From Patescibacteria group bacterium (GTDB lineage Bacteria > Patescibacteriota > Patescibacteriia > JAXHNJ01), in the NCBI GenBank assembly GCA_041649715.1, contig JBAZMP010000001.1:146741-210740 (forward strand): a DNA stretch of 64,000 nt, in the 5' to 3' direction. The stretch's first letter is position 1, and every line of letters starts with the position of its first letter. The notes under the pieces are model-generated. The model saw nothing but the letters and a program-made list of their open reading frames with translations, did no database searches and was not told the DNA's origin. Both the position numbers and the translations under genes were made by a program. Of the stretch, positions 41,210 to 63,124 are shown one piece after another.

Positions 41210-41215
41210 AACTAA

Positions 41216-44211: not shown

Positions 44212-44258
44212 ATGTGCTATAATTGATAGGTCTAATACTGTTATTTTCGTCAAAAATA

Positions 44259-45131
44259 ATGCCTGATATAATTCGGCAAAATCCCCCTGATTCAAGCCCC
44301 GATAAAGGCGACCGGCCCGATAAGATAAATGAAAGGAAAATTTTTGCCTTGGTGGGTTTAATAGGTGTCGTGGCTCTTTTTTTAGGATTTATGCAGCTTT
44401 TGCAACAGATAAGAAGTCCTTTCTTACCCGAGGATGTGACTTTAAGCAATGCCGCCCTTCTTACCAACGAACAGTTAAGCGAGATAAACAATTTAAGATC
44501 GGCTGATACCGACGGTGACGGACTTTTCGACTATGACGAACTTTATGTTCATAACACCAGCCCTTATCTTAAAGATTCGGATTCGGACGGCATTTCTGAC
44601 AAGGAAGAGGTTACAAACGGCACCGATCCGAATTGTCCGTCCGGCCAGGATTGCACCGGTTCTTCCAATACCAATAGCGTTAAGACAAATTCAAGTTCTG
44701 CCGGCCAAAATAACACCAATTCTGGGCTCTTAGCCGGCAACATGTCCGCGGATACTTTGCGCGTAACTTTGAAAAACGCCGGCGTGCCGCAGAGTGTTCT
44801 GGACGGCACGAGCGACGAAGACTTACTGGCCGTCTACAATCAGACGATCAGCGAAACGAAGAATGCCAACACAAATTCCAGCGTAAGCGCGAACAATAAT
44901 CTTAATATCAATTTGAACACTAATACGGCCGCTGATACCAATATATCTGTCAGTGATTTAAACAGCGCCCTGCAAGATCTTACGCCGGCCGAAATCAGAG
45001 AGCTGCTGACGGAATACGGTTTGGAAGAAAGCATGCTTAATAACGTGGATGACGACACTTTGCAGGCGATCTTTCTTCAGGCGATGGCCGAGCAAGAGCA
45101 GACTGAAACGAACACCAATATAAACCAATAA
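44259..45131 (+). CDS. Membrane-anchored protein with thrombospondin type-3-like Ca-binding Asp repeats
   Basis: One TM segment (IFALVGLIGVVALFLGF), then DTDGDGLFDYDE...DSDSDGISDKEE and an Asn/Thr-rich low-complexity tail. The ATG at 44259 is preferred over the TTG at 44223. Confidence 0.55.
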   Translation: MPDIIRQNPPDSSPDKGDRPDKINERKIFALVGLIGVVALFLGFMQLLQQIRSPFLPEDVTLSNAALLTNEQLSEINNLRSADTDGDGLFDYDELYVHNTSPYLKDSDSDGISDKEEVTNGTDPNCPSGQDCTGSSNTNSVKTNSSSAGQNNTNSGLLAGNMSADTLRVTLKNAGVPQSVLDGTSDEDLLAVYNQTISETKNANTNSSVSANNNLNINLNTNTAADTNISVSDLNSALQDLTPAEIRELLTEYGLEESMLNNVDDDTLQAIFLQAMAEQEQTETNTNINQ

Positions 45132-45137
45132 TTTAAT

Positions 45138-48100
45138 ATGCCCCGTTCACCCGTGGGTAAAAACAAGAAAAAGCAAACAATCAGTAGCTATTTTATGCTA
45201 CTTTTTTTTGTGTCCGTCATTGTGATCCCCTTCTTGCTTAAGCCGGAAAGAGCCGACGCGCAAATGGTCGATCCGACCGGCTGGCCGCGGACGATTTTTA
45301 CGGAAATAAAACAAGCCTACCGCTGGGTTAAGGATAATATTTATAACAAGCTCCAGGGCACGCTGAAAGAGGCGGCGGCCGTCGCTTTTAAGAATTCAAT
45401 GAAGGTATTTTTCGGCCGGCTCGCCGAAGATACGGCTGTTTGGCTGGCTTCGGCCGGCACCGGCCAAAAACCGCTTTTTTTGTCCGATCCCGGGCAATAC
45501 TTTAAAGATGTGGGCGACGCCGCTTTGGGTGACGCCCTTTATACTTTAGGCGCCAACACTTTCGGGGTCAATGTCTGCGAGCCGGACCTTTCGGCCAAGA
45601 TCAGCATCACTTTCGCCTTGGGAAAAACCTTTAATCCTTCGACCTGGTGCCAAGATTCCTGCCGGAGCACAAACAGTACGCAGAGCAAGGCGGTAAGTGC
45701 CAAATATATCATGACCTCCGATATGACCGAAGAACAAAAAGAGCGGACGATTGATTATTTTAAGGCGTTTGATTCGGAGGCAGGAATAGAAAATTTTAAA
45801 GATCTTAAGCCGGGGTCTTTCATCTGTCCGGTCACTTGCCCGACGGGCATAGGCAGAATGGGATTTATTCCAAATTGTTCGAACCCAGCCTATGCCGACG
45901 AGGGAGGAACGCCTCTCAATACCGAACGGGTTAATCTTCAGGCTTGTATCACGACTATGCAGTTTTTGTACGACTCCGAGTTACAAAAATCGCAGACGGA
46001 TTTGAACCTGTGCCTGCGTAACTGCACTAAGGGTGCCCGCAAGGCCCAATGTACGGCCTCCACTGTCCTGAAGAATGTCAAAAACTTGAAGGATCAAAAA
46101 ATAATAGGGACCCAGGTCGGTTTATATTTTCAGCCCGAACAGAACGATCTGGGCCAGCTTTTGACCCTGTATGGCGTGCTGCAAGAGAAAAAACAATCGG
46201 AAATTGATGCAGAAAGACTTTTGTACCAGAATCAGATCGGCCCCGTCACTTCAAAAGTGACCCGGGAAGTGCTGACTCCTTCCGAACTTGTCCAGGCGCG
46301 GGGAACGGTTTCTCTCCAGCAGGCGACGGCGACCGAAGAGGTTTACACCGGTTCTATCAAGGCCGATGTTGTTACCATATTCACCAATACTTTGATTAAT
46401 AAATTGATTCAGCGGTTTTACGGGGGCAAGTGCGCCCTCAACCCTTCGGCGGAAGCCTGCAAGGGTCCGTCTGGCGGTTCCAAATTGAGCCAGCTGATTT
46501 TTGGCGGCGGCGGGCCATCCGGCATCGCGGCGGCTAAACTGCAGTTCGCCTCTATTGCCAAGCTCAATTTTACCCGCGGTTCACCCGGCCAGGACCCGAT
46601 AGCCATCAATGACCTGGTCGCCAAGGGAATTGTTGATTCGGGTTTTCAAACGGCCATTGACCAGATGCTGACAGTCAAAGAAGCGATTGATAAAGGCCTG
46701 GTCGGCGGGACTTTTGGCTTTGACGTGGAAGGCCGCGAACCGAACCTTGATTCCGGCGTGCCCTACCAGACGATCGTCTATTTGCGCAAATATCGGGTGG
46801 TGCCCGTCGGCTGGGAACTGGCAGCCGAGTGGATAAGGGATCATCCGCAGAACATCACTTTAGAAAAACTGGTCAGCGAAGAATTCAGCCGTTGCGACTC
46901 GGACAAGCATTTTTGCAGCAATAATAATACGAGAAGCTGTCAGGCGGACAGTGATTGTTACGACGAAAATATTTACCCGGCCTGCACTGGCAATAGCCAG
47001 TGTCCCGGACAGATCTGTTTGTCGGCGACCGAAGGGGCTAAATCGGTTTGCTACGACAGTTGTGATCCGGACGTGCCACCCGAGGATCTTCCCTGCGGCG
47101 ACGGCCGGGAGTGCCGGACGACGGCGACCGGCACCGGTTACTGCGTGAGAACGGATGAACCTTTTTGCCAGCCGGAAAGCGGCGTTTCGCCTTTTTGCGG
47201 CCTGGTGGATCCGAACTGGGTCTTAAAGATGCCGGAAACTTATTGCGAGAAAAGAGGCGCTTCGGATACTATCCTGGCCAAGGATTTTATCTGCGATGAG
47301 GACACCAACGGCGACGAAAAAGTGGATTGTAATAACGGAGATATCGGTCATTGGCAGATCAGTCGCGACTCCGAGACTTGCGTGGACGAAGTGGCGTGTT
47401 TGAAGGAAGACAGTCAGGGTAAATGCCAAGCTTACGGCTATTGTTTCGAGGAAAAACCTATCTGGCGTTTCAACGGCGACGAATGTTCTCGCGTCTATGC
47501 CTCCTGCCAGAGTTATACGGCGGCGGACGGCTCCACGGTTTCCTATTTAAAAAATACTTTAGATACCAATGGTTGTGACGCGACCAATGCCGGCTGCCGC
47601 TGGTACTGCGCCGAGCCGGCTTATGACACGGCGACCGGCCAGTGGTCTTGCACCCGCGATAACGCGAGCAACAAGATACGCTTTGACCGCGATGTCGCCG
47701 AGTGCGATGAAACCGAAGTCGGCTGCCAGGAATATATCACTACCGGCGAAAGCAGCGGCGCTAATATTTTTGCCAACAGCAGCTTCGAATACTATACCGT
47801 CCAAATTGATGACGGCGTTCCTGATTTATACTCGGATTACACCCCGGGCTATCCGAGCGTGTGGGTAGGTAATCAAAACATTCTTTCGCCGTGTGGCGCG
47901 GCGGCGGAAGCGGTGAGCGACGCTTATACCGGCGGAGCCGCCCTCAAGCTTACTTGGCGAGACACTTGCTCCGCGACAGACTCCGGCCATTACATGGTAC
48001 TGAACGACATTAACACCGGCCACTCGGTGTTGAATCGGACTTTCACTTTTTCTTTTTACGCCAAAGCGGATGCGGCTACGGTATTGACTGTTAACGCCAG

Positions 48101-50747
48101 CCAAGGCCGCGGCGGTGAGGTGTTCAGATATCCCGTTAAAGATTTTAATCTTACGACTGAATGGCAGCGTTTTTCTTTCACCGAAATTTTCAATACGCTC
48201 TATCTCGAAGGTGGCGTCCCGAAATATCCGAATTTAGTCGTGGTCGCTTTCCGGCCGGTGGAAGGACGCGTCCTGTACTTTGACGGTATGCAGGTGGAGG
48301 AAGGTGGTTTATCCAATTATAAAGACTATGGCTCGGAGAATAAGATTTATCTGAATAAAAACCGTCTGGCTTGCGAAGCCAAAGACGTCGGCTGCGACAA
48401 ATACACGCCGGTAAAGGGAGGCCTATCCGTTCCCGGCGTGGTCTATGGTCAGAACATGTGTTCGGCGGACAAAGTCGGCTGCCAGTCTTTCAGGGAAACG
48501 GCCATTGATAATATTCCCAAGAGAAGTGGTCAGGATCCGGTTTACTTCATCTCCGGCACGGGCACGAGTTGTCCGAACACGGCGGTCGGCTGCGAAGAAT
48601 ATACCAATCTTGATGAAGTGGCAAGAGGCGGAGAAGGCAAGGAATATTTCCAGCAAATCAGGCAGTGCATCAAGCCGAATACGCCCAGTATTCCGATCGC
48701 AAATTATTATACTTGGGAAGGCAGCGATACGGCCGGCTATCAGCTAAGAGCTTTCCGTTATCTAGTCAGTAATTTAAACAATTATAACGGTGAAAGCGGT
48801 AACGCGCCCTGCACGAATTTAAGCATCGAGGCGGGCGGCACGACTCCCTCCTGTGTCGATGTTAATACCCTTGATGAAACGGAAAGCTTAAGACCGGCTT
48901 TCTGCACGGCGGACGATCTGGCGTCTAACCCCGACTGCACCGAGTTTTACGATACCGCCGGCCATATTTTTTACCGGCTGAGATCGCGCATTATCGTGGA
49001 GACGGACAAATGTTATTCTTACCGCAATACCACGGACGCCCAGGAAGATCCGGCCTCGAATAAAATATACTTTATCAATGCCGATACCAGCGTTAGGTGC
49101 GCGGCCAGCCAGGCGGGTTGCCGCGAATACAAAGGCAACACCGGGGAGGTGACCCGCGACATCTTTAAGGATGATTTTGAAAAAGTGGAAACTGGCGCGG
49201 TTAACTGGGTGACCGGCAATGTCAGCAATGAATCTTTGCGGGCCAATGAGCATTCTCTCCACGTCACGGGCAATACCACGGCGACCAGCACGAACGTTCC
49301 CAATGTTTTGAAAGAGGGCAAGATGGCCAACGGCCAATACTATAAGATTTCTTTTTGGTTGAAGCCGGATACAGCGACGACCATTAATAGTGTCTTTATC
49401 CAAGATAATTTGCCGTCCGGGCCGGCTGGCCGACTGGATTTCCCGGGTTTGGCCGTTCCCTTGGCTGTTACTTCTGACTGGAATAAATACACATTTGGCC
49501 CCTTATTGTTCGACCGCAGCCCGGCAAGCCCCGGTGATTACGAACAACTGGTGATCAGCCTTAACGGCGCCTATTATCTGGACAATGTGTCGCTGGAAGA
49601 GGTGAATGATACTGTTTATCTGATCAAGAATACTTATCTAAGTTGCCAGGCGGCCGACCTGGGCTGTCAGGAATATAAGAATAGCAGGGGAATAAGCAAA
49701 TTTATCAAATCCTTTGACCATTTATGTGCCGAGAAGTTTATCGGCTGCCAGGCGATGATCAATACCCGAAATTCCACTAATCCGTATCAGACGACGGTCA
49801 AGGGCATTGTTACGCCGGCGGACACATTTGAGACATACGTGAACAACAGCGCTAATTATTGCTCGGCTTCGGCCAAAGGCTGCCAGCGTTTTGGCTTGCC
49901 GGCCTTAGACTCGACTAATCAGCCGACGGCCTGGCAGACGAAATACTTGATTAATGATCCGGATAAGTATCAATACATAGACAGCGAAGGCAATGACAAG
50001 TCTATTGCTTGTGTGGCGTCTGAGGAGGGCTGCGACGAATTTAATTACAGCAATGGAACGGGGGTCAGCTGGTTTAAGGATCCCCAGGGCAAGACCTGCG
50101 AGTATAAACAAACGCCGGATTCAACCGAATACCGCTGGTATAAGAAAAACACGAATCTTCTCTGCCCGTACGTGACGCCGCCGCTGGAAACTCAGCCTTC
50201 AGGTAAGGCTTGTGTTATGACTTGTGCCGCCGGGATATACGCCGGTCAGGCTTGCGTTTTGAATAGCGATTGCCCGAACAGCTATTGTAATGGTGACGCC
50301 ACCGATGTCGGCAAGGCCTGCACGTCAGACGCTAACTGCAAACCGGGCAACAGGTGCGATTACTGGGCGGGTTTATGTCCCGAGGCCCAGAGCGGCTGCA
50401 ATGAATATCGCGATCCTTCTGATCCGGAAAATTGCCGGTCGCAGTGCCCCTTAGAGGAGATTGGGGGAGAGCCGGTGCCGATGGATGAAAATTGTAAATA
50501 TACGGTTTGTGTAGGAGGCACCAAAAACGGAGAGAGTTGCTATTCCAGCGGAGATTGTCTGGGCGGCGGCACCTGTGTGGCCTCCGGCGTGTCGGCCATC
50601 GGTCTGCCCGGCTGCCATTCTTATTACTACATTAAAGACAGCGTGGAGGCCAACCAGGAAGAGTGCGGCAATACCGTCAATGTGGAAGAAGGTTGCCTGC
50701 CCTTTAACGATACCTCTAATCCGGTCTTAAACATGAGAGGTCAGTAA
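45138..50747 (+). CDS. Giant (1869 aa) Cys-rich secreted/membrane-anchored protein
   Basis: N-terminal TM/signal segment (ISSYFMLLFFVSVIVIPFLL), then hundreds of Cys in CxxxC/GC-containing modules. It is the first of five tightly packed co-directional genes. Confidence 0.8.
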   Translation: MPRSPVGKNKKKQTISSYFMLLFFVSVIVIPFLLKPERADAQMVDPTGWPRTIFTEIKQAYRWVKDNIYNKLQGTLKEAAAVAFKNSMKVFFGRLAEDTAVWLASAGTGQKPLFLSDPGQYFKDVGDAALGDALYTLGANTFGVNVCEPDLSAKISITFALGKTFNPSTWCQDSCRSTNSTQSKAVSAKYIMTSDMTEEQKERTIDYFKAFDSEAGIENFKDLKPGSFICPVTCPTGIGRMGFIPNCSNPAYADEGGTPLNTERVNLQACITTMQFLYDSELQKSQTDLNLCLRNCTKGARKAQCTASTVLKNVKNLKDQKIIGTQVGLYFQPEQNDLGQLLTLYGVLQEKKQSEIDAERLLYQNQIGPVTSKVTREVLTPSELVQARGTVSLQQATATEEVYTGSIKADVVTIFTNTLINKLIQRFYGGKCALNPSAEACKGPSGGSKLSQLIFGGGGPSGIAAAKLQFASIAKLNFTRGSPGQDPIAINDLVAKGIVDSGFQTAIDQMLTVKEAIDKGLVGGTFGFDVEGREPNLDSGVPYQTIVYLRKYRVVPVGWELAAEWIRDHPQNITLEKLVSEEFSRCDSDKHFCSNNNTRSCQADSDCYDENIYPACTGNSQCPGQICLSATEGAKSVCYDSCDPDVPPEDLPCGDGRECRTTATGTGYCVRTDEPFCQPESGVSPFCGLVDPNWVLKMPETYCEKRGASDTILAKDFICDEDTNGDEKVDCNNGDIGHWQISRDSETCVDEVACLKEDSQGKCQAYGYCFEEKPIWRFNGDECSRVYASCQSYTAADGSTVSYLKNTLDTNGCDATNAGCRWYCAEPAYDTATGQWSCTRDNASNKIRFDRDVAECDETEVGCQEYITTGESSGANIFANSSFEYYTVQIDDGVPDLYSDYTPGYPSVWVGNQNILSPCGAAAEAVSDAYTGGAALKLTWRDTCSATDSGHYMVLNDINTGHSVLNRTFTFSFYAKADAATVLTVNASQGRGGEVFRYPVKDFNLTTEWQRFSFTEIFNTLYLEGGVPKYPNLVVVAFRPVEGRVLYFDGMQVEEGGLSNYKDYGSENKIYLNKNRLACEAKDVGCDKYTPVKGGLSVPGVVYGQNMCSADKVGCQSFRETAIDNIPKRSGQDPVYFISGTGTSCPNTAVGCEEYTNLDEVARGGEGKEYFQQIRQCIKPNTPSIPIANYYTWEGSDTAGYQLRAFRYLVSNLNNYNGESGNAPCTNLSIEAGGTTPSCVDVNTLDETESLRPAFCTADDLASNPDCTEFYDTAGHIFYRLRSRIIVETDKCYSYRNTTDAQEDPASNKIYFINADTSVRCAASQAGCREYKGNTGEVTRDIFKDDFEKVETGAVNWVTGNVSNESLRANEHSLHVTGNTTATSTNVPNVLKEGKMANGQYYKISFWLKPDTATTINSVFIQDNLPSGPAGRLDFPGLAVPLAVTSDWNKYTFGPLLFDRSPASPGDYEQLVISLNGAYYLDNVSLEEVNDTVYLIKNTYLSCQAADLGCQEYKNSRGISKFIKSFDHLCAEKFIGCQAMINTRNSTNPYQTTVKGIVTPADTFETYVNNSANYCSASAKGCQRFGLPALDSTNQPTAWQTKYLINDPDKYQYIDSEGNDKSIACVASEEGCDEFNYSNGTGVSWFKDPQGKTCEYKQTPDSTEYRWYKKNTNLLCPYVTPPLETQPSGKACVMTCAAGIYAGQACVLNSDCPNSYCNGDATDVGKACTSDANCKPGNRCDYWAGLCPEAQSGCNEYRDPSDPENCRSQCPLEEIGGEPVPMDENCKYTVCVGGTKNGESCYSSGDCLGGGTCVASGVSAIGLPGCHSYYYIKDSVEANQEECGNTVNVEEGCLPFNDTSNPVLNMRGQ

Positions 50748-50753
50748 AGACCT

Positions 50754-53700
50754 ATGTTTACTGCCAAAAAATTTCTTTCCATAAAAATAGTTTCTTTGAT
50801 AATTTCATCAGCCGTTTTTCTGATTTTTACCGCGTTGGCGGGGGAGGTAAAAGCGATCAGCATTTCTTCCGGTCCAACCGCATCTAGTCTGACAACGACC
50901 ACGGCCAATATTTCCTGGCAGACGAACGAAATCGGCAATTCCCAGGTGTATTACACGGATAACGGCAATCCCGGCTGGATCACGAGCAAGGTGGAATCAT
51001 CCACTTTTTCCTTTTTATCTGTTGACGGCTTGAGTAGAAAAAATTTGTGGGCTTTGGGTATCGGTGACGGGGTCAGTAAAATATATCATTATGATGGCGC
51101 TTCTTGGGTTCTTCAGTATTCAACCGCCGCCATCACTCTGCATTCAATTGCGGTCATCGATTCCACTCACGCTTGGGCCGTGGGCAGCGGAGGCAACATT
51201 CTTTTTTATAACGGTTCAAGTTGGTCCCTTCAGGCGACCCTGGGCGGGTATCTGAACAAGGTTTACGCTCTTGACTCTTCGCACGTGTGGGCGGTCGGTG
51301 ACAATGCCGCCGACCAGGGCGCTTTATTCTTTTTTGACGGGTCCGCCTGGAGTGTCAAAGCCACGTATTCCGAAACCCTAAAAAGTCTCTGGGTCAGCGA
51401 TGCGACTCATATTTGGGCGATTACGCAATTAGGCGAAATTCTGTTCTATAACGGCAGTTCAATGGTTAGCCAGGCGAGCTACTCTTATGCTCTGTATGAT
51501 ATTGACGGCTATGACTCAAGTCATGTCTGGGTGGTGGGACAGGGAGGATATATTGTTTTTTTCAACGGTACTAGTTGGCAACTTCAATCTACGGCTTCAG
51601 GTGTTTTATTTGCGGTGCACGTGGTCGGTCCCGGCAGTGTCTGGGCGGTAGGCGGTACCCAGGCTTACCATACCGAAAACGGCGGGGCAAACTGGAGTGC
51701 GGTTAGCCCGCCGGTAGGCAGCATGTATGCCGTATTTCATTTCTCGGCAAATCAAGTATGGGTCGGCAGTTATTTAGGCAACATTCATTATTACGGGTTA
51801 AATTATAATTATTCATATTATACCGCGCCCGAAGTCACTAATCATCAAATGACCCTTTCCAGTCTGGCTCCTTCGACAACCTATTATTATTACGTCTGCT
51901 CGGCAAGCTCTGGTCAAGAAGTGTGCAGCAATGATTATAGCTTTACTACCCTGGGAGTTTGTCCGGACGGCACGTATGCCGGTCTGTGCAGCGGTACCCG
52001 ATATTGCGATCCGGTCCTTCTGACACTTGTTGATAATTGCATCCAGTGCAGCTACGTCTGTCCTTCGGCCACGCCTTACTGCAATACTGCCAATGGCCAA
52101 TGTCTGGCTGGCTGTAACCTGACAACTCCGGTCGGCAGCTGTTACAACACGCAATACTGCGCCAGCGCCAATACCTTTGTCAATGATTGCCGGCAGTGCG
52201 GTTATACTTGCCCTTCCGGCACGCCTTACTGCAATACGGCCAATGGCCAATGTCTGGCTGGCTGTAACCTGACAACTCCGGTCGGCAGCTGTTACAACAC
52301 GCAATACTGCGCCAGCGCCAATACCTTTGTCAATGATTGCCGGCAGTGCGGTTATACTTGCCCTTCCGGCACGCCTTACTGCAATACGGCCAATGGCCAA
52401 TGTCTGGCTGGCTGTAATCTAACAACTCCGGTCGGCGGCTGCTCCGGCACCCAGTATTGTCAAAGTGCGAATAATCTCGTGAATAATTGTTTACAGTGCG
52501 GATATACCTGCCCCAGCGGAACAAATTTCTGCAATAACGGCACTTGCGAAGCCTGGTGCGCGACGGATATCAGTGTAGGTGAGTGCCGCGGCGATCAGAT
52601 GTGCACTTCCAGTTTGGCCTTTGAAAATTGGTGCAATTACTGCGGCTATTATTGCCCCGCCACCGAATATTGTGATGGAACGACGCATCAATGCGATAAT
52701 ACCAAATGTTCCGACGGCACGGCCCGCGGCACCTGCAATACCAACCAGCAATATTGCTGCGGCGATACCGATACATTTTGCACGCCGGGCACCCTGACTA
52801 ATAAATGCACCAAATGCGGCTATACTTGTTCTTCCAGCGAACCTTATTGCAATGCCAATTTTGATTGCGAACCAAGCTGTCCCGACGGCACCCCTTTTGG
52901 CCAGTGCAATACTGCTACCAAGTGGTATTGCGCAGATGGCGCATATTACCCGGCCGACGGCCCGAATTGCTACGTTTGCGATTTTGACTGCTCTTTAACA
53001 CCCGGTACTCCTTATTGCGACGAGGATGAAACTCAAGCCTGTATCAATCGCTGTTCCGACGGCACGGAAGCAAGTCAGTGTTCCAATACCAGTACCAAAT
53101 ACTGCAATGATTCTTACCAGCTGGTCGATGATTGCCGGCAGTCCTGCGGTTATACTTGTTCTGGCGCCACGCCGCAATGCAACGACTTGACGGGCGTTTG
53201 CGAGGCGGACACCACGCCGCCGGTCATTAATAATATCAATGTGGTGCCGGATATTAATAGCGCCGTTCTGACCTTTGACACTTCCGAGCCGACGCAGGCT
53301 TTCATCCTTTTGAACTCGACGCCGTCCTGCGACGGAGACGTGACCGCGATCGGGCTTTTGGGCTTTGCTTCCAGCCGGACTATCGAATTTTCCGATTATG
53401 CCGGTCAGCTTGCTCCCTTAACGACTTATTATTTCTGCATAACGGTTTATGATGCCGCCTTTAATTACGCCGCGACAACCGAGCCTTCTCCTTGGTTTTT
53501 TACCACTCTGGCCGCTCCTGATACGACGCCCCCAACCGTTGATATTATCGCCCCGCAGGAAGGGGAAAATATTTCCACCCCGACCTATACGATTACGGTA
53601 CAAGCCAGTGATGATAACAGTGTTAGTTACCTTGATCTTGGTTTTGACGGCGCTGTCGATGATTTTTCTTTCGCCCATTTGACCACGGCCCCTTATGAAT

Positions 53701-54125: not shown

Positions 54126-54139
54126 CGATAAATTTTCTT

Positions 54140-57100
54140 ATGAATAAGCTAAGAGAAAAAATTAAAGAGAGAAAAATTTTAAGCTTTAAGCGAGCCCTTG
54201 TTTTAGGTTTTTGTCTCGTTATTCTTTTTGCGGCCGCAAATCTTTGGGCTTCATCTTTTATTAATGCTTTGCCAAAAATAATTTCGCCGGCCAAAGCCCA
54301 GACGACTTCTCTTTATTTGGTCAATATCAATGTTACCGCCATCACTTCCACGACGGCGACCATCACCTGGGAGACGAATTTACCGGCTAATTCAAGCCTT
54401 AAATACGGGCTGACCGATGCCTATGAATTGACCAGTACTTGTGGCTCCTGCCAGGCCACCGATCTGGTCACCACCCACCGCCTGACCGTCGGCAATTTGA
54501 ACGCGGCCACCACTTATCATTTTCAGGTGATCTCCGCCACCGCCTCCGAGACAAAAACGAGCCAGGACCGCAATTTCGCCACCGCCAGTCCTTCCGGCGG
54601 GTCTGACACGACCGCTCCTTTTGTCACTTATATCAAGGTGGATTCCACCAATACGCAGGCCATCGTGAATATTAATACCAACGAAGAGACGCACGTGACG
54701 GTTTACTATAGCCTGACTCCCGGCGTTACCCAGGCCACGCCGACTTATGTCGCCGAAGATCCAGACCAGCCCTACCGGATAAGTCATGCCCCGGCTTTTA
54801 CGGTTACCGGCGGCACGCGCTATTATTACCGGATCTACTCGGTTGACCGGAACGGCAACAGTTCCCTTACCGCCGAGTTTGATTTTACTTCCTCCACTTC
54901 CACCGATCACGTTTTTTCCACCGGCCTGTGTCCGGGCAATGTGCCCCTGGGCGCCTGCACGGCTGACGGCAATTACTGTGATGTCGGTACCGGCACTTTG
55001 GTAAAGAACTGCGAACAGTGCGGCGCCAGCTGTGCGGCCGGTCAGACCTGCCGGCCGGGCGGCGAATGCACTAATGATCCTTCTTTGTCCGGCGATCCCT
55101 ACCAGTGCAATTCTTCCGCTTGTTACGATGCCGCCAATCAATTTACGCCGTCGGCGACGGTAAATTGCTACGCCAGCTATCCGAGATGCGACGCTAACAC
55201 CATCCTGAAAGTGAAAAGGGATCGCGAATGCGCCAAGTGGTTCACCTGCGGGACGGCGATCGATCAGAACAATCCGACGACCGGCCAAAGCGAAGAACTC
55301 TGTCTTAATTCCGCCGTCTGTACTTCCTTGGGCGAGAACGGGCAATGCAACAGTTATGTGGAACTGCCGAAAGCGGAAATGACCTACCGGACCCCGGCCG
55401 AAATAAGCAAAATAAAATATCTGACCGGCTCGCTAAACGCCGGCCTGGACTGGCAATACCAGTCAGGCGCCCCGGTCATCAGGGGCTATTACCCCTGGTC
55501 AGCCATGGAAGAAGTGGGCGGCAAGATCAGTATTGAAAATTATAATTTTGAAAATACGACCAGCCCGCGGGCCGTGGATAATGATCCGGCTTCATCAAGT
55601 GTTTTGACCTACGATATCCGGCTTTGGCCGGCCTGGCAGACTTACGCTGATCCCGTCTCGGAAACAAATCCGGCGATCTCCAGTGAATGGGATCCGGAGA
55701 CGGCCAATAAAAAAGATAACCATGTGCTGGCGGTCCAGCAAATTTCCGCCCTTAATCAAGGGGCGGTGGTTAAGCTGGGGGCCGCCACTTCCACGGGCTT
55801 CCAATACGTCTTAAGCCTGAAAATAAAGTCATCCGCCCCCCAGGAGCAGAAAGTCACTTTCGCGCTGGCCAACAACACCAACCCCGGCGGCAGCTCACCG
55901 GACGTGAGCTCTTTCGGCGAATACGCGCTTACTACCGGCTGGCAGACTATTTTGACCCGGGCGACGGCGGGCGTCGGCGGCAGCGTCAATTATCTGCGGA
56001 TCTATGTTTCTGGCGGCAGCCTCCAAACTTTTTATATTGATGAGGTAAAAATTCAGCCAGTCTTAGAGGCGGGTTCGGGGGTTTATCTTTCCCGTTCCTG
56101 CCGGCTTTATCCCAAGGAAGATTCGCCGGCCTGCGAATACACCGACGATAACGGCATCACTAATAAGGGCTGGTACGGCTATTGCCTGGAGCGCGACCCG
56201 AAGAACGAAAGCCTTTGCCTTTCCTGGTGGCCGGTGGATATTCTTTTCGGCGAATCCAATCTTTTCGGTTCGGAACAAACCGCCGGCTACACCGGCCGGA
56301 AGCCCCTGTATTATTGCTTGGAAAGCCGGGGCAGAGGCAATTATCAACCCTGGGGATTTCAGCCAGACTTTAATGAAGCTGTTTCCAATTGGAATATCTT
56401 TAATTCAAGGGGTTGGGTAAGAACCGCAACGTGGGATAAGATACCGTCAGACCTATTGGATGTTTATCTTTATGATATTGCGAGTATAAGATTACAGACT
56501 GATCCTGACAATGATCACTATCATCCGAGAGGATCTAACGGTAACCCCCCTTATTTGGGGTGGACGAATAATAATCAAGTGGATGGTTGGCAGGCAGATG
56601 ATCTGCAATTTTCCAATAATTATTTTTGGACAATGAGCAATACAACAGTTTCGGAGGATGGGCATCACGGTGACTGGATCCGTTTGCAGGTAGATAATAA
56701 AAATATGGGAGATTTTGACGCGGCACTAAGAATAGCCTTTTATTTTAATCGCACCACATTAAAGTTAGAGCTTTTCGGCTATGTTTGGGCGTATAATAAA
56801 AATAATGTAACTCATTATTCGCCGCCTTACCTGCGTATATACATGTATTTTAAAGATAGATGCGATAAAATCGTGCAGGTGGTGGATGAGTTCGGAAATA
56901 ATGCCGCTTGGGCGGAAACCATAAATTCTTCCGTTACTCCGGTTCTGAATCTTAATTACGGAAAAACCAGCGATTTGGATCCTTATGGCGGCGCCGTGAC
57001 CTCTTCCAGCGATCCGACCAGCTGGTCATTGCCTCTCTTTGCCCAGGACGCCAATGATTATACGATTGGTCTCGGGACGCCTTTTCAACTGCGTTCAGGG

Positions 57101-58054
57101 CGGCCTTACGCTTGTTTTGGCCCTTGTTCGCAGAAGGTATGTTCAGGCGGAGGAAAAGATGGCCAGTCTTGCCATAACAATACTGATTGCTTGGGCGCCA
57201 ATAATACCGGACAGGGTCTTTGCGTGGGCGTTGGCTCTTGCTTTTCAACCGCTCAAGCCTGCACGAATGATTCCCAGTGTCCTGGCGATATCTGTATCGG
57301 CGGCGCGGCCAGCAGCCGAGGCGCCCAATTGGTCAATGACGCGCCAGCAGTCGCGGATTCATATTTTGCCATGCTTAGATTGCGCGGTCTTTTTGCCAAG
57401 ACTTACGGCTTTTGGCGGTGGGATACCGCCACCGGGCATTATGCCGGAGTATATAGTACTCCTCCGGCGGAAATAGAGAATCCAATATTTTATTCCTGGA
57501 ATCCGCCGACGGATAAATGTTCAGGCACAACGCGCCAATACAGCCCGACCGATCTCAACAGTTACTGCGGTTACGCCCCGCAGATCAGAAATATCAAGTT
57601 AGGTGACGGAAGCTCCAATACGGTTAAGCTTGGTTTGGACGGCGGCAAGATAAAATTATCCTTTAACACCGTGGTGGACAGCCAGCAGCAGCCGCTGAAG
57701 ACTTTTTACATTGACTGGGGCGACGGTAATGTGGACGCGATACCATTTGGCTACAAATCAAAAGACAGTCCCGATAGTCCCCATGTTTATAATCATGCTT
57801 ACGGCAGTTGCAGGAGCGCTAGTTGCACATATGTCATTAAGATATTGGCCGAAGACAGCTGGGGCTGGTGTTCTGCTCGACCGGAAGGCCGGACTGGCTC
57901 TTGCGAAGATATTTCTCTTGAAGGAAACAAGGCTCGCTGGGATCCGGTGGACAGCAATGCCTGTTCTGGCGGGACCTGTATCGACGGTATCTGCACCGAC
58001 GGGGTGGACGGCGGCCGGTCCTGCGGCGCTTTAACCGTGGAATTAAAAGATTAA
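54140..58054 (+). CDS. Giant (~1300 aa) secreted Cys-rich protein with an N-terminal FN3-like domain
   Basis: TM/signal (ILSFKRALVLGFCLVILFAAANLWA), then ITSTTATITWETNLPANSSLKYGLTD (FN3-like), then a Cys-rich body. The ATG at 54140 is preferred over the TTG at 54113. Confidence 0.8.
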   Translation: MNKLREKIKERKILSFKRALVLGFCLVILFAAANLWASSFINALPKIISPAKAQTTSLYLVNINVTAITSTTATITWETNLPANSSLKYGLTDAYELTSTCGSCQATDLVTTHRLTVGNLNAATTYHFQVISATASETKTSQDRNFATASPSGGSDTTAPFVTYIKVDSTNTQAIVNINTNEETHVTVYYSLTPGVTQATPTYVAEDPDQPYRISHAPAFTVTGGTRYYYRIYSVDRNGNSSLTAEFDFTSSTSTDHVFSTGLCPGNVPLGACTADGNYCDVGTGTLVKNCEQCGASCAAGQTCRPGGECTNDPSLSGDPYQCNSSACYDAANQFTPSATVNCYASYPRCDANTILKVKRDRECAKWFTCGTAIDQNNPTTGQSEELCLNSAVCTSLGENGQCNSYVELPKAEMTYRTPAEISKIKYLTGSLNAGLDWQYQSGAPVIRGYYPWSAMEEVGGKISIENYNFENTTSPRAVDNDPASSSVLTYDIRLWPAWQTYADPVSETNPAISSEWDPETANKKDNHVLAVQQISALNQGAVVKLGAATSTGFQYVLSLKIKSSAPQEQKVTFALANNTNPGGSSPDVSSFGEYALTTGWQTILTRATAGVGGSVNYLRIYVSGGSLQTFYIDEVKIQPVLEAGSGVYLSRSCRLYPKEDSPACEYTDDNGITNKGWYGYCLERDPKNESLCLSWWPVDILFGESNLFGSEQTAGYTGRKPLYYCLESRGRGNYQPWGFQPDFNEAVSNWNIFNSRGWVRTATWDKIPSDLLDVYLYDIASIRLQTDPDNDHYHPRGSNGNPPYLGWTNNNQVDGWQADDLQFSNNYFWTMSNTTVSEDGHHGDWIRLQVDNKNMGDFDAALRIAFYFNRTTLKLELFGYVWAYNKNNVTHYSPPYLRIYMYFKDRCDKIVQVVDEFGNNAAWAETINSSVTPVLNLNYGKTSDLDPYGGAVTSSSDPTSWSLPLFAQDANDYTIGLGTPFQLRSGRPYACFGPCSQKVCSGGGKDGQSCHNNTDCLGANNTGQGLCVGVGSCFSTAQACTNDSQCPGDICIGGAASSRGAQLVNDAPAVADSYFAMLRLRGLFAKTYGFWRWDTATGHYAGVYSTPPAEIENPIFYSWNPPTDKCSGTTRQYSPTDLNSYCGYAPQIRNIKLGDGSSNTVKLGLDGGKIKLSFNTVVDSQQQPLKTFYIDWGDGNVDAIPFGYKSKDSPDSPHVYNHAYGSCRSASCTYVIKILAEDSWGWCSARPEGRTGSCEDISLEGNKARWDPVDSNACSGGTCIDGICTDGVDGGRSCGALTVELKD

Positions 58055-58057
58055 TCA

Positions 58058-61000
58058 ATGCCGAGTATTTTCCAAAACAAAAAAATCAGGTCTCTGGCCG
58101 TTTTTTCCGGCCTGGTTTTGGTCATCGTCGGAATCGGTCTTATCTGGCCGCAGGGCGCCGCTTTAGCCGATGACGGCATGAATTTTATCGAAAGCGCCAT
58201 ATCATGGATCCTGATGCGGATCGTCGGATTTTTGGCCAATCTCCTTGTTCAGATCATCAATATTTTGGTCGCCGTGGCCAAATACAACGATTTTATCAAC
58301 GCCACGGCGGTGGTCAAGGGCTGGGTGATTGTCCGCGACGTCTGCAACATGCTTTTTATCGCCATTCTGCTCGTGATCGCTTTCGGCACGATCTTCAAAT
58401 GGGAGGCTTATCGTTACACCCGTTTGCTGCCCAAGTTCATCTTGATGGCCGTCCTGATCAATTTTTCCAAGTTCATCTGCGGTTTTTTCATTGATTTTTT
58501 CCAGGTGCTGATGATGACTTTTGTCAATGCTTTCGCCGGCGTGGCCGCCGGCAATTTCATCAACGGCCTGCATCTTCGGGAAATGGTGTCGTTTAGGGAA
58601 GATGCCGGCACCGACGTCAGCCTAAGCGGTGTGTTCGGCGCTTTGCTTTTAGCCGTCACCCTTTTGTTGATCGCGGTGGTGGTCATGCTGGTTATCACCA
58701 TTTTTTTGCTGTTCAGGATAATGATGCTCTGGATCCTGGTGGTGCTTTCTCCGCTCGCTTTCGTCCTGCGGGCCTGGCCCGGCAAGGGCGAGCGTTACGC
58801 CTCGGAGTGGTGGGACCAATTCACCAATAATCTGACCTCGGGGCCGATCCTCGCTTTCTTTATCTGGTTGTCCTTATCCGTCATGACCTTAAGTTCCGGC
58901 GACCCTGAAACGACCTGTCAGGGCACCAATCCAAACGTCGCCGGCATCCCCTGTGTTGATACCACCGAGCAGACGGCTTCAACGACCGCTCCTACCACCG
59001 GTGTCAGCGGCAAGGTCGCTTCCACTATTTCCGCGATCTCTGAATCCGATACTCTTTTAAGCTATATAATTTCCATCGCCATGCTCATGGGTTCTTTAAT
59101 GATGGCCCAGAAAATGGGCGGCATGGGCGGGCAGCTGGCCGGCCAAGCTTTAGGCGGCGTCCAGAAGCGTCTTAGCACGGCCCTTAAATACGGCGCGGCC
59201 GGCGCGGCCGGCGGTGCTTTGGGTGTGGCTTTATGGAAGGGTCGGGGTGTTATCAGTAAAGCGCCGGGCTGGGCACGCCGCAAGGTCACTGGTGGAATTG
59301 TCAGCACGGCCGCCAGCAGCAAAGTATTACAGGGAGCCATGGGCTATGCTACCCGCGCCCCGATTATCGGCGCATTGGCCGGACAAGGCTTAAGCCGGAT
59401 GCAAAGACGGCAAAAGGCGGATAAGGCGAAAGCTGAAGAATATGTAAATAGTTTTGATCAAAATACCAAGGCCGGCGCCCGTGCCCTGACCAACATGGCT
59501 AATGCCCCTTTGATTGGGCGGCTAACGGATTCTCGCCGAAAAATCCGTTCCGCGGCTCGCAATATCATGCCTACAAGTATTAGGGATCCAAGGAGAAGAC
59601 AGGAGCAGATTAATAGAATGGACGTGAAAGCAATAGGCGCGCTTAGCATCCGTGAACAACAGAATCTTGGGCGGGAGCACTCGTTGGGCAACATAGATCT
59701 TTTCCAAAATCAAGACCTGATAGACTACGCCCAGAGGAACCAGAACTTTAGAGGTAATTTAAGCCGGGGATCGGTGAGGGATGTTGTTGATCGGAGGGGT
59801 ACTCCTGTTCCTGGTATTGTCAATCCCGCTACCGGTGAAGCGCTCTTAGGTCTCGCGACAGGTGGCGTGCCATTTGGATGGGGACGCGGATCGGTCGGTC
59901 CGGGTACTAATTTGCCTCCACTCCGGCGCCTCGCTTCGTGGTGGGAGCGCAACAAATCACAGGGAGATGGGGATTGGAGCCTTAATGCCCTGAACCGCGG
60001 GCAGAAAAATGAGATCGGCCTGGATTTTAGCAAGTTCGGTGATAAGTTTCAGCAACGTTTGCTTGAGGGTTCCGGCAGAAGAGACGTTAAGCATATTAAG
60101 GGCGCGGACTTAACCAGAGGCGATATTAATAGGGCGGCAACAGAATTAGTGCCTATTTTGGATAAGGAAATCGCCCGCCTGAAAGAAGAAGGCGGCAGCC
60201 AGGAAGAAATAGACGAGGCGCAAAAGACGCGTGACATTTTTGCTAACCCGGAAGCCGTAAAAAACATGGATCATCTTGATCTTATTAATACTTCCGCCGT
60301 TAATTATAAACGCGGACAATTAAGAATAACTAAGCCCCATGAAGAAATTCACGGTGAGGGAGTGACTGACGAAAAGTCCGTTGATCAGATCGTAAAAATA
60401 TTAGCCGAAAACAAGATGCGTAGTTTGGCGCCGGTGATGGCGCGTTACGTGCGTTCGGGTTTATCCCCCAAACAAGCCGCCAAAGAGCTTCAGCCGGTGA
60501 TGGATAAAATAAATTCCGAAAGGGCCAAGAGTAATCGCGGCGAAAAAGGCATGAGACCGGAAGAGGTCATTGAGGAGATGACAGGCTTTAAGACCGGTTA
60601 TTTGAAGGAACGGATTATCCGGCCCGAACGGCAAAAATCACCGGAAGAAATTGCCCAAATCGAAGCCGAAGATAAAGCGCAAAAAGAAGCCGCCGCCGCC
60701 GAAGATAAAGCGCAAAAAGAAGCAGTTATTAAAGAGGAGGAAGCCAAACGTAAAAGTGCCGCTTTTGCCGAGGAATTGGGCGTTAAGCCTGGTATTATTA
60801 GCGAGGAAGAACGTCAACCGTCCAGGTATTCTCAGACTATTGGTCCGGGGACAGCGAAACTGGAAAGAGAAATGGCGGAAGAAGCAAGGAGAAAAGTCCA
60901 GGAAGCGGCGGTTCGCTTTGGCGTCAAGCCCGAGTCTTTAGGCGAGGAAACAGCCGCCCCTAAATATTCAAAAACTTATGGTCCGGCGGCGGAAAAGATG

Positions 61001-61684
61001 GAAAGAGAAATTGCGGAAGAGCAGGCTCGCAAGCGGGAGGAGAAATTCGGCCGAGCGGTTAAACCCGCCCCGAAACCGACCGCCCAAAAAGCGGAGAAAA
61101 AGTCCACTATTCTTTATAGCGCCAGCGGTGCCCCGATTAATCCGGAGGAATATAGCCCCGCGGCCGAGCAAGAAGAAAAAGCCGTATCCGAGGAAAAACC
61201 AGCCGTTAGTGTCGGTCAGCCGGCTCCGTCCGCGACCGTTGTGCCCCCTGAATTAAAACAGAATGCCGGCCTTAACAGCCAACTGGACAAGCTTGGCAGT
61301 TTCCTGGAACAGATGGAAGGCAATCTAAAACCTGATTATGAAAAATTGTCTTCGGCGTTAGAAAAACTGAGACAGGAGATCAATAAAAGTAAAACGTCTT
61401 CCGCCGCTAATATTTCTAAAAATATGGTTGATCCCCTTTTGCGGGCGACAAGCCTCGGCCCTAATTTGACCGCGTCTGAGTTCGTAAGATTGTCGGATAA
61501 TCTAAAACGTTTAGTAGAAGTCTTTAATAAAAAAAGTGTGCCGGAAGCGAGTAAGGGGGAAAAGCCGGCAAAAAAAATAGGACGGGAAGAAGAAAAAACT
61601 GGGAACGAGACTGTTGGGTTTGAAGAAAGAACGTCCAAAAATCCGCTTTCTTCACGCGCGGACGATAATAAAGATAATTATTAG
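58058..61684 (+). CDS. Polytopic membrane protein (1208 aa) with a long Lys/Glu/Ala-rich repetitive C-terminal tail
   Basis: The N-terminal ~330 aa contain ~6 TM helices (e.g. LAVFSGLVLVIVGIGLIW and LLLAVTLLLIAVVVMLVITIFLLF). The C-terminal ~450 aa are charged, with internal repeats of the form AEDKAQKEA. Confidence 0.75.
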   Translation: MPSIFQNKKIRSLAVFSGLVLVIVGIGLIWPQGAALADDGMNFIESAISWILMRIVGFLANLLVQIINILVAVAKYNDFINATAVVKGWVIVRDVCNMLFIAILLVIAFGTIFKWEAYRYTRLLPKFILMAVLINFSKFICGFFIDFFQVLMMTFVNAFAGVAAGNFINGLHLREMVSFREDAGTDVSLSGVFGALLLAVTLLLIAVVVMLVITIFLLFRIMMLWILVVLSPLAFVLRAWPGKGERYASEWWDQFTNNLTSGPILAFFIWLSLSVMTLSSGDPETTCQGTNPNVAGIPCVDTTEQTASTTAPTTGVSGKVASTISAISESDTLLSYIISIAMLMGSLMMAQKMGGMGGQLAGQALGGVQKRLSTALKYGAAGAAGGALGVALWKGRGVISKAPGWARRKVTGGIVSTAASSKVLQGAMGYATRAPIIGALAGQGLSRMQRRQKADKAKAEEYVNSFDQNTKAGARALTNMANAPLIGRLTDSRRKIRSAARNIMPTSIRDPRRRQEQINRMDVKAIGALSIREQQNLGREHSLGNIDLFQNQDLIDYAQRNQNFRGNLSRGSVRDVVDRRGTPVPGIVNPATGEALLGLATGGVPFGWGRGSVGPGTNLPPLRRLASWWERNKSQGDGDWSLNALNRGQKNEIGLDFSKFGDKFQQRLLEGSGRRDVKHIKGADLTRGDINRAATELVPILDKEIARLKEEGGSQEEIDEAQKTRDIFANPEAVKNMDHLDLINTSAVNYKRGQLRITKPHEEIHGEGVTDEKSVDQIVKILAENKMRSLAPVMARYVRSGLSPKQAAKELQPVMDKINSERAKSNRGEKGMRPEEVIEEMTGFKTGYLKERIIRPERQKSPEEIAQIEAEDKAQKEAAAAEDKAQKEAVIKEEEAKRKSAAFAEELGVKPGIISEEERQPSRYSQTIGPGTAKLEREMAEEARRKVQEAAVRFGVKPESLGEETAAPKYSKTYGPAAEKMEREIAEEQARKREEKFGRAVKPAPKPTAQKAEKKSTILYSASGAPINPEEYSPAAEQEEKAVSEEKPAVSVGQPAPSATVVPPELKQNAGLNSQLDKLGSFLEQMEGNLKPDYEKLSSALEKLRQEINKSKTSSAANISKNMVDPLLRATSLGPNLTASEFVRLSDNLKRLVEVFNKKSVPEASKGEKPAKKIGREEEKTGNETVGFEERTSKNPLSSRADDNKDNY

Positions 61685-61687
61685 CGC

Positions 61688-63049
61688 ATGAACTATTTAA
61701 AGGACATAATGCAAAAGTTTAATCAGCTGCCGGAGGCCGTTCGGGAGAGGGTTGATAATCCGGCGGCGGATGAAGTCATAAAAGAAATTGAAGACCGATA
61801 TCAAATTAGTCTAAAACTTTTGATAGTCTTGGTTATGGTCGGTGAAATTGAATTTGACGATATACCCGATTATCTTTATCACCAATATCATCTGGATGAA
61901 GAAGTAGCGGCCGACATCAGAGACGAGCTGGTCAAAAAGATTTTTGTTATGTTTCTTGACGAACAAGACAGGCAAGTGGCCAAGCCGGCTGAGGCGGTAA
62001 AAAACATTTTTAAAAGAAATCTAGTGGCATTCTTGAAGGCTACGGAAGATAATAGGCATGATATAAATGAGCGAATTATTTACATGATGGAAACCGACGA
62101 AACCATAAACGAGGAGGAGTTAGTGAAGCAGATCTTAGCTAATTCGGAGGAGTTAACGACTAAGCCGTTTTTAATCAACGGGCAGGAGGCGGCCCCCTCC
62201 ATCGCCAATTGGTTGCAGGATTTTATTAAATACCAGGGTTTTGATGATTTTGATAATTTTAGGATAGTTGAATATGTTTCCTCATCGCCGAACGCAAAAA
62301 TTCTGGACAAGGACGAAAAACAAATCCTCATGGATTTGATTCAGCTTTATCGCAATATCAAATTTTTTCCCACTCCGCAGGAAGGCGATCCGCGGGACTG
62401 GGAGGTTTTTCCTTTAGCCAAAGAGGAAAAAGAGTTTAAGGCGCTTTCTATCCCGGGCGGTCTAGAAAATGTTTCATCGTCCACGCCGGCCGGCCAGGTT
62501 TTGTCCTGGCAGGAAAAATTGAAAAAGATCAATGAAAAAAACGAGCCGTTCCTGTCCCGCCTGAAAAACTTGGCGGATATGACGCAGGCCCAAACAAAAG
62601 GGGATTTGCCCTCCATCATCATGACTTTGCTGAACGATTTTGAGGCGAAAAGGCAAGAGCCGTTTTTAGCCGGACTTTTCCTCCTGGTGAAAATGGAAGC
62701 CTGGCCGGCGGTCATGCAAGATGAGAACATAAAAAATCTATTGATAAAGACTGTATTGCCGCTTTTGAAAAAACAAAAAGCGGACATAAATCTAGAAAGA
62801 ATAATCGCTGATTTCGAGCAATCGTCAAATAGCGGCCTTTACGGAAAAATACTGCTTAAGTATTTTTTAAACGTGATAATGCCGGCGCAACTTCAGACTT
62901 CCGCCTATCTCGCCTCGCAGCTGGAAAATATTTTCGCCGCTTCAGGGCAAAAGGAATACTTGGGTCTGGCCTATTTCAATCTGTTAAGCGAAGAGTACGA
63001 ATGGGCAAACGTCGATTTCACGGCGGACGGCTTTTTAAAGATGGAATAA
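61688..63049 (+). CDS. Hypothetical protein (453 aa)
   Basis: Last gene of the co-directional cluster, with a 3-nt gap after the previous stop. No recognisable family. Confidence 0.65.
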   Translation: MNYLKDIMQKFNQLPEAVRERVDNPAADEVIKEIEDRYQISLKLLIVLVMVGEIEFDDIPDYLYHQYHLDEEVAADIRDELVKKIFVMFLDEQDRQVAKPAEAVKNIFKRNLVAFLKATEDNRHDINERIIYMMETDETINEEELVKQILANSEELTTKPFLINGQEAAPSIANWLQDFIKYQGFDDFDNFRIVEYVSSSPNAKILDKDEKQILMDLIQLYRNIKFFPTPQEGDPRDWEVFPLAKEEKEFKALSIPGGLENVSSSTPAGQVLSWQEKLKKINEKNEPFLSRLKNLADMTQAQTKGDLPSIIMTLLNDFEAKRQEPFLAGLFLLVKMEAWPAVMQDENIKNLLIKTVLPLLKKQKADINLERIIADFEQSSNSGLYGKILLKYFLNVIMPAQLQTSAYLASQLENIFAASGQKEYLGLAYFNLLSEEYEWANVDFTADGFLKME

Positions 63050-63124
63050 AGAATGGCGAAAAAGGCGGAGACAAGATTTTCCGCTTTTTCTTTTGCCTTA
63101 TCATAAAGAAATAATCCCGCGTTT

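Follow-up and report, generated by a model that had tools for sequence, protein, structure and literature searches.

We have analysed a window of 64,000 nucleotides (nt) from a Patescibacteria group bacterium (contig JBAZMP010000001.1, assembly GCA_041649715.1; positions below count from its first letter) and find that six consecutive genes near its right end, named here g1 to g6, form the leading, surface-exposed part of the already published Patescibacteria type IV secretion system (T4SS) cluster (PMC10633639, PMC12102498). The fifth gene, g5, is shown to encode an extended VirB6/TrbL-like polytopic membrane subunit. Its upstream neighbours g2, g3 and g4 encode giant cysteine-rich proteins, of which g2 and g4 are shown by their alignments to correspond to the two halves of one protein of 2.6-3.3 thousand amino acids (kaa) that most relatives encode in one undivided gene. 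The T4SS as such is known; what is new, as far as the literature examined goes, is its link to a family of giant cysteine-rich proteins bearing carbohydrate-binding modules (CBMs). A preliminary description of the same DNA had proposed a cell-surface or attachment apparatus of unknown type with no recognisable secretion-system gene set, a statement that proved wrong, because g5 is VirB6/TrbL-like and a T4SS repertoire follows on the same contig. The six genes are as follows.

g1, 44223-45131 (TTG start) or 44259-45131 (ATG start), + strand, 302 or 290 amino acids (aa)
g2, 45138-50747, + strand, 1869 aa, 87 Cys (4.7%)
g3, 50754-54125, + strand, 1123 aa, 74 Cys (6.6%)
g4, 54113-58054 (TTG start) or 54140-58054 (ATG start), + strand, 1313 or 1304 aa, 46 Cys (3.5%)
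g5, 58058-61684, + strand, 1208 aa
g6, 61688-63049, + strand, 453 aa (446 aa in public gene calls)

The sizes and common direction of these genes agree with the preliminary description, and their intergenic gaps are 6, 6, -13, 3 and 3 nt, the third becoming +14 if g4 starts at the ATG at 54140, as it does in public gene calls (1304 aa). The abundance of cysteine in the three giants is likewise confirmed: g2, g3 and g4 contain 207 Cys in total, which, against a median Cys content of 0.37% in the other open reading frames (ORFs) of related loci, amounts to a roughly ten-fold enrichment.

The identification of g5 is based on topology, fold, family membership and gene neighbourhood. It has about 7-9 hydrophobic segments between aa 12 and 350, in a helical membrane domain extending from aa 1 to about aa 385, and ends in a hydrophilic tail of 788 aa (17% K+R, 15% D+E) in which short repeats are visible by eye; a BLAST search of the tail for internal repeats reported none. 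The AlphaFold model of the membrane domain has a mean local confidence (pLDDT) of 76.5 and a global template-modelling confidence (pTM) of 0.69, with pLDDT >85 over most of aa 50-280. Its six best Foldseek matches in the PDB are all TrwJ/VirB5-TrwI/VirB6 stalk chains of R388 (7o3v, 8rt9, 8rtd), at probabilities of 0.84-1.00 (at least 0.99 in five of the six) and a best E-value of 4.3e-3; the match table does not specify which stalk subunit each chain is. Pfam TrbL was the one family matched by aligned members of the g5 family, in 6 cases of 36; the best of these matches has an E-value of 8.7e-7 and scores 29.4 bits, above the cut-off of 25.9. The family member P0012 is 48% identical to g5 across the membrane domain, and one g5 homologue is labelled VirB6-like by the Joint Genome Institute (JGI). 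The family is large, with 311 database matches and more than 540 species-level genome loci. A g5 profile searched against PDB sequences matched only low-complexity or coiled-coil proteins. With VirB6/TrbL (TrwI of R388, PF04610) g5 shares a polytopic helical membrane domain, its best fold match and VirB3-like and VirB4 neighbours, whereas its length of 1208 aa, its charged tail and an identity of about 16% in the structural alignment set it apart from TrwI. In its long hydrophilic tail g5 agrees with the class of "extended VirB6" proteins (PMC12857230).

Downstream of g5, on the same strand, lie PrgI-like and VirB4 genes. Genes beyond the window were read from the ENA contig L001, which is identical to the window over an overlap of 5,943 nt, and include the following.

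d3, 167 aa, PrgI/VirB3-like (PrgI 3.1e-5, 24.8 bits, under the 27-bit cut-off)
d4, 226 aa, TraC-N-terminal/TrsD-like, directly upstream of VirB4 (TraC_F_IV 1.9e-3)
d5, 631-646 aa, VirB4 (P-loop_TraG 1.1e-28)
d6, 200 aa, transmembrane protein
d7, 172 aa, transmembrane protein
d8, 424 aa, VirB2-like pilin (T4SS_pilin 7.5e-9, 36 bits against a cut-off of 26.6)

The PrgI/VirB3-like, TrsD/TraC-like and VirB4 genes begin about 4-5 kb past g6, and the positional homologues of d3 in the related loci L085, L087 and L088 have a recorded PrgI match. A T4SS ATPase, which the preliminary description had suggested looking for beyond the window, is hence present on the same contig in the form of VirB4. The other genes named in that suggestion did not turn up: Pfam and NCBIfam gave no SLH/S-layer, prepilin, PilB/PilT or sortase match for g1-g6 and nine downstream genes. 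The stretch between 44 kb in the window and 10 kb beyond g5 contains no gene recognised as a relaxase or coupling protein. The product of the pilin gene d8 (L001 21331-22605, about 8.3 kb past g6) is extended at its C-terminus by about 290 aa, of which 5.9% are Cys, and Cys-rich pilin homologues occur in 12 related loci, so that Cys-rich extracellular parts look like a recurring feature of this lineage of T4SS.

The assignment of g2 and g4 to one ancestral protein is drawn from phmmer domain tables, in which aa 1 to about 1760 of g2 align with aa 1 to about 1750 of single giant homologues and aa 300-1280 (approximately) of g4 align next on the same proteins. In the split form seen here, g3 is inserted between the two halves, and g4 has acquired a signal peptide or anchor of its own as well as two FN3-like domains. 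The split gene occurs in this genome and in a subclade comprising L015, L017, L089, L091 and P0125-P0147. We also considered g2 and g4 as a paralogous pair, which was ruled out by their collinearity with the N- and C-terminal parts of the single giants.

g2 represents the N-terminal two-thirds of the giant. It starts with a signal peptide or anchor, after which come a helical region (about aa 50-430), modules of the Cys-hairpin type and two or more CBM4/9-like jelly-rolls, with a Pfam CBM_4_9 match of 27.4 bits against a cut-off of 25.9. The CBM modules are placed at about aa 870-1070 and 1340-1500 of g2 and at about aa 477-634 of g4. In its AlphaFold model (pLDDT 63.8) good domains are found at 490-590, 610-760 and 870-1070, and Foldseek related the model to CBM4, CBM16 and CBM22 folds with E-values of 1e-7 to 1e-5 (best 1.3e-7) and target-normalized template-modelling (TM) scores of 0.6-0.7 (about 0.65); the CBM domain was the only one matched in this search, the N-terminal helical region, modelled with low confidence, finding no counterpart. 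g4 represents the C-terminal third, with Pfam matches to Pur_ac_phosph_N (1.2e-9) and fn3 (1.7e-4), a CBM_4_9-like domain under the cut-off (4e-3, 17.9 bits) and, near the C-terminus, a putative PKD-like motif read from the sequence by eye. An antisense ORF inside g4 (54392-55345, - strand, 317 aa, Gly/Arg/Ala-rich) is in all likelihood no gene and merely results from the high G+C content of the coding strand. The jelly-roll fold and the Pfam match of g2, weaker in g4, are features in common with the CBM4, CBM9, CBM16 and CBM22 modules of glycoside hydrolases; unlike those, the modules of the giants have no attached catalytic domain and are embedded in a disulfide-rich protein.

The giant family is widespread and, among its named matches, comprises hypothetical proteins from Patescibacteria only. 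A search with the core of g2 gave 1,255 cluster representatives at 50% identity, 1,046 of them with E-values of 1e-30 or lower, and nearly all of the 150 representatives listed are 1.6-3.8 kaa long. Invariant Cys columns run throughout the family, and the motif C-x5-G-C-x2-[YFWM], present in 11 copies in g2, has a density of 2.3 per 1000 aa in giants versus 0.006 in other ORFs. PA14, dockerin and Laminin_G_3 domains were found in giant homologues. Known adhesin homology was not detected by Pfam or NCBIfam in g2-g4, where only CBM_4_9, FN3-like and Big domains were matched, and PDB sequence searches with g2, g3 and g4 gave only FN3 or CBM traces. The single N-terminal hydrophobic segment of each giant fits either a cleaved signal peptide or a membrane anchor; an LPxT[GAN] motif was not found in g1-g4, and their C-termini are non-hydrophobic. 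The earlier view of the giants as exported surface or adhesion proteins is supported by these modules and folds. As to its particulars, the N-terminal signal or transmembrane anchors stand, FN3-like domains are confined to g3 and g4 and the beta-propeller to g3, and g2 carries CBM4/9 modules instead.

A thioredoxin/glutaredoxin-fold lipoprotein of 132 aa (41216-41614, + strand), with a signal ending in FIIGC and a CGHC active site, is encoded 2.6 kb upstream of the Cys-rich operon and could act on the giants as an extracytoplasmic thiol-disulfide oxidoreductase. L084, too, has a DsbA/thioredoxin gene near its giant.

The arrangement recurs across relatives. We compared 80 species-level loci centred on g5 homologues, in which ORFs were called anew and compared by phmmer, and the recurring order is g1, giant, occasionally a small gene, VirB6-like gene, g6, d2, VirB3-like, TrsD-like, VirB4, d6 and often the Cys-rich pilin. 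Among the 56 loci with at least 9 kb of upstream sequence, 46 encode a giant homologue ahead of the VirB6-like gene, and VirB4 lies downstream in 48 of the 57 with enough downstream DNA. When the comparison was started from the giants instead, the VirB6-like gene came next in 7 of 9 cases, comprising four single-gene giants (VirB6 2-130 nt after the giant), two split forms and one locus with a 4.5-kb insertion. The VirB6 start is only 2-12 nt downstream of the single-gene giants of L086, L087 and L088. Conservation of the gene order over related genomes, which the preliminary description had proposed to check, is therefore borne out in many species-level loci.

Some loci depart from this order. 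A recurrent three-gene insert, whose products of about 415, 550 and 250-400 aa match none of the proteins encoded in the window, separates the giant from the VirB6-like gene in L023-L029, L058, L063 and others, and in L020, L021, L026, L031 and L056 a longer insert pushes any giant outside the 10-kb flank.

Signals for transcription frame the six genes, and the elements from the promoter to the end of the window are listed here.

44195-44223, + strand, sigma-70 type promoter TTGACA-17-TGnTATAAT (extended -10), 12/12 match
63060-63099, + strand, intrinsic-terminator-like hairpin (63060-63089) and T-run: a 12-pair stem, then CTTTTGCCTT
63125-63451, + strand, d1, a 108-aa ORF between both transcription units, with homologues in 4 loci only
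63506-63534, + strand, second promoter-like site TTGTGA-17-TGnTATAAT, 10/12 with TG, preceding the T4SS core genes
63590-64000, + strand, d2, cut by the window end; a 492-aa gene on the contig, with the second promoter-like site upstream

The first promoter overlaps the 3' end of rsmA/ksgA and is the sole 12/12 match within 32500-64000. Since the TTG codon at 44223 falls within its -10 hexamer, the ATG at 44259 is the likelier start of g1. The signal is conserved upstream of g1 homologues, with 12/12 matches in L006 and L009 and 11/12 in L008, and a perfect TGnTATAAT is found ahead of the g1 homologue in 10 of 16 loci; by comparison, a score of at least 11 is reached in 0.7% of random 241-nt windows. 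The hairpin at 63060 directly follows g6 and closes the unit, and no terminator was found in the 3-nt gap between g4 and g5. That a promoter stands between ksgA and g1 and that no terminator precedes g5 argues that the giants and the VirB6-like gene are co-expressed, and g1-g6 are best explained as a single unit of transcription bounded by the promoter at 44195 and the hairpin at 63060, in line with the operon previously proposed. The translational coupling that had been read from the tight spacing is another matter, because the unrelated housekeeping genes at 36876-44211, among them the leucyl-tRNA synthetase (LeuRS), Sua5, a major facilitator superfamily (MFS) transporter and KsgA, are packed equally closely (-4 to 18 nt), so that spacing is no specific sign of it.

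The reading frames are sound. Frameshifts breaking the giant ORFs had been named as an observation that would count against the operon; in the assemblies L001 and L002, which with the present one make three, the ORFs are intact and unbroken. g2 and g5 also have identical counterparts among the hypothetical proteins of a Patescibacteria-group metagenome-assembled genome. The sole difference among the assemblies is one 150-bp repeat unit within g3, which belongs to the following array.

52062-52441, + strand, tandem repeat in g3, 150 bp, 2.5 copies, 97% identical, found by Tandem Repeats Finder and encoding near-identical 50-aa Cys units

L001, the ENA assembly, has exactly one unit fewer and is otherwise identical, while L002, a Logan contig, starts inside the array at 52388. 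The difference reflects either true copy-number heterogeneity or assembly collapse.

The protein encoded by g3, the middle gene inserted between the halves of the giant, has a signal peptide or anchor and is otherwise built of domains resembling FN3, a beta-propeller of the Ycf48/PSII_BNR type, Cys units and Big_7/Ig domains. Its Pfam matches are Pur_ac_phosph_N (6.8e-15) and Big_7 (2e-11); the propeller is recognised by repeated WAVG blades and by PF14870 PSII_BNR in homologues, and there are eight Cys units of about 50 aa with 8 Cys each. A first phmmer pass matched only L001 and L002, which raised the idea that g3 is unique to this genome; this was ruled out when other split-type genomes were seen to have g3-like middle genes, and full-length homologues are confined to genomes with a split giant (P0166, P0195, P0216, L091).

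The constant partner of the giant is g1, a single-pass membrane protein whose lone hydrophobic segment spans aa 35-53. It contains bacterial thrombospondin type-3 (TSP3, Ca-binding) repeats (Pfam TSP3_bac, 2.2e-10) and an N/S/T-rich region. In 25 loci, as well as in all 9 of the reciprocal look-ups, a g1 homologue is located immediately 5' of the giant.

At the other end of the unit, g6 encodes a soluble protein with no Cys and no transmembrane segment, conserved directly after the VirB6-like gene and present in 60 of 82 loci. It has no Pfam, NCBIfam or PDB sequence match, and profiles of g6 and d2 searched against the PDB gave nothing credible. With hhalign the g6 and d2 families align at their N-termini over a common domain of about 94 aa, at a probability of 97.6% and an E-value of 3.5e-12, by which d2 is identified as a distant paralogue of g6, and together they occupy the slot between VirB6 and VirB3. 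The paralogous pair that the preliminary description had placed among the six genes is accordingly not a whole-gene pair within that range: g3 and g4 have only an FN3 plus Cys-unit module in common (E about 3e-4), and the true distant paralogue of g6 starts at 63590.

How could these components work together? In our proposal, a signal or anchor sequence at the N-terminus would take the giants out of the cell via Sec. Numerous disulfides, for whose formation the CGHC lipoprotein thioredoxin might serve, would stabilise them there, and either the N-terminus itself or the TSP3 membrane protein g1 would keep them on the cell surface. They would then bind host cell-wall glycans through the CBM4/9 jelly-rolls, the putative PKD-like motif of g4, the FN3 domains and the propeller, and the bound giants could bring the channel and pilin of the T4SS into place on the host, with g3 and its variable tandem repeat acting as a fast-evolving specificity module. 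On balance we lean towards the giants being Sec-exported, disulfide-stabilised, glycan-binding adhesins that work with the T4SS. A further-reaching version, which we put forward tentatively, sees in this so far unnamed protein family the host-contact component still missing from the T4SS in candidate phyla radiation (CPR) members outside Saccharibacteria: an obligate, co-transcribed partner of the extended VirB6 that would dock the channel on host glycans and set host range, with fission and the repeat-variable g3 diversifying specificity.

Several observations weigh against this reading and should be kept in view. The fold match of g5 is modest (TM 0.35 by query and up to 0.50 by target, E 4e-3), and g5 itself is without a Pfam match at E-values up to 10 and without one in NCBIfam. 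The model of g2 has a pTM of 0.31, a low overall confidence, and the glycan binding of the giants is suggested by predicted fold. Their functional tie to the T4SS is likewise suggested by genomic arrangement, and the conserved synteny extends further upstream to an M23/LysM peptidase, LeuRS, Sua5, the MFS transporter and KsgA; because these unrelated housekeeping genes are also syntenic, conserved order alone is weak evidence of a common function. Two loci, L083 and L090, keep the KsgA-g1-giant block with no T4SS gene within 10 kb downstream, and Southlakia, in which the sole experimentally studied Patescibacteria T4SS is found, has no such giant in its cluster.

The last two observations also speak for an alternative that we hold rather unlikely, namely that g1 and the giants are general envelope or adhesion proteins with no functional tie to the T4SS, brought next to it in an ancient, rarely rearranged origin-proximal block and sharing merely a transcript with the VirB6-like gene. 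In its favour, 12 of 16 loci have KsgA ahead of g1, and in all 8 reciprocal look-ups with upstream flank KsgA is found upstream of the giant, in most cases immediately before g1. However, a strong conserved promoter divides ksgA from g1, no such boundary separates g4 from g5, the VirB6-like gene follows closely on the single-gene giants of three relatives, and the cluster's own pilin also has a Cys-rich extracellular extension. The same proximity to VirB6 could instead mean that the giant is a structural part of the conduit, a wall-spanning or extracellular stalk, cap or tip replacing the missing functions of VirB5, VirB9 and VirB10 in a monoderm system. VirB6 of R388 forms a stalk with VirB5, the giant family has a conserved N-terminal helical region and invariant Cys, and the 2025 survey detected no adhesins and few VirB8/VirB9 homologues for the T4SS of Patescibacteria (PMC12102498). 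We nevertheless consider this distinctly improbable: the recognisable modules of the giants are glycan-binding and Ig-like, as is typical of adhesins, their length and domains vary and fission and insertion are tolerated, which would be unusual for a core channel part, and the Saccharibacteria cluster does without them.

It could also be asked whether the cluster is a conjugative element, such as the remnant of a plasmid or of an integrative and conjugative element, with the giants as mating-pair adhesins for DNA transfer between Patescibacteria. The system is related to monoderm conjugation machinery (PMC12102498), and the adhesin-first order of the operon resembles that of pCF10. Yet the 20 kb examined contain no relaxase, coupling protein, integrase or repeat boundary, the locus is set in a conserved housekeeping context in many genomes, and relaxases were reported in only 103 genomes, the system being judged co-opted for other roles (PMC12102498), which makes a conjugative element highly improbable. 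Finally, that the large ORFs are artefacts of assembly or annotation, or their clustering a coincidence, can for practical purposes be set aside. The assembly is indeed a metagenomic one, and one of the assemblies breaks at the near-perfect tandem repeat of g3, but the three assemblies are identical bar one repeat unit and hundreds of homologues have the conserved Cys and the same order.

The T4SS of Patescibacteria has been described by Wang et al. 2023 (PMC10633639) and Quinonero-Coronel et al. 2025 (PMC12102498) and is related to the monoderm MPF-FATA machinery, with ksgA as a frequent neighbour of virB4 (PMC12102498). The present locus is alike in its chromosomal VirB4, TrsD-like, PrgI/VirB3-like, VirB6-like and VirB2-like pilin genes, in its ksgA neighbour and in having no relaxase or coupling protein nearby. 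The T4SS was essential for epibiotic growth in the sole species tested (PMC10633639). According to a 2024 perspective, the role of the Saccharibacteria T4SS, in the only class of Patescibacteria studied experimentally, is "completely unknown" (PMC11665869). The Southlakia cluster encodes a VirB6-like protein of 1088 aa, SEML1_0013, which is extended by a long hydrophilic tail and resembles g5; in contrast to the present locus, it has no giant, and an essential protein of 998 aa takes the position of g6/d2. In the literature searched on the CPR T4SS we found no cysteine-rich or giant protein linked to the system, and the g1-giant pair before VirB6 is unmentioned in the descriptions examined.

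Outside Patescibacteria, the closest functional parallel is perhaps the enterococcal conjugation operon of pCF10, in which the surface adhesins PrgA, PrgB and PrgC are encoded upstream of the channel genes. Both cases involve exported surface proteins upstream of the channel genes in a monoderm T4SS operon, presumed to attach the partner cell. Unlike PrgA, PrgB and PrgC, to which no sequence relationship was found, the giants have no LPXTG signal, an extreme Cys content and CBM, FN3, PKD-like and propeller modules, and are far larger.

If the proposed link holds, the giants, co-transcribed with VirB6, would provide a concrete candidate for the attachment of the secretion machine to the host, and possibly a determinant of host range, in ultrasmall bacteria. 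Should the link prove to be one of synteny only, the finding shrinks to a new and widespread CPR surface-protein family beside a known system.

Three other regions of the window were noted. Two conserved-position proteins of 201 and 230 aa (39341-40657, + strand), with no Pfam or NCBIfam match, are encoded between LeuRS and a nitroreductase. A surface-type protein of 1356 aa (25643-29713, + strand), unrelated to the operon giants, combines CarboxypepD_reg domains with FG-GAP/VCBS-like repeats. At 12000-17700 (mostly - strand) lies an island in which the G+C content rises to 0.52-0.57 versus 0.38-0.50 around it, and in which PADLOC and NCBIfam scans at 12-17 kb gave nothing significant. It encodes a 542-aa protein that is PurA-like but has diverged strongly (86 bits, the cut-off being 402), as well as three proteins without a family match; it is flanked by tRNA-His and tRNA-Arg (18478-19239) and may be acquired DNA.

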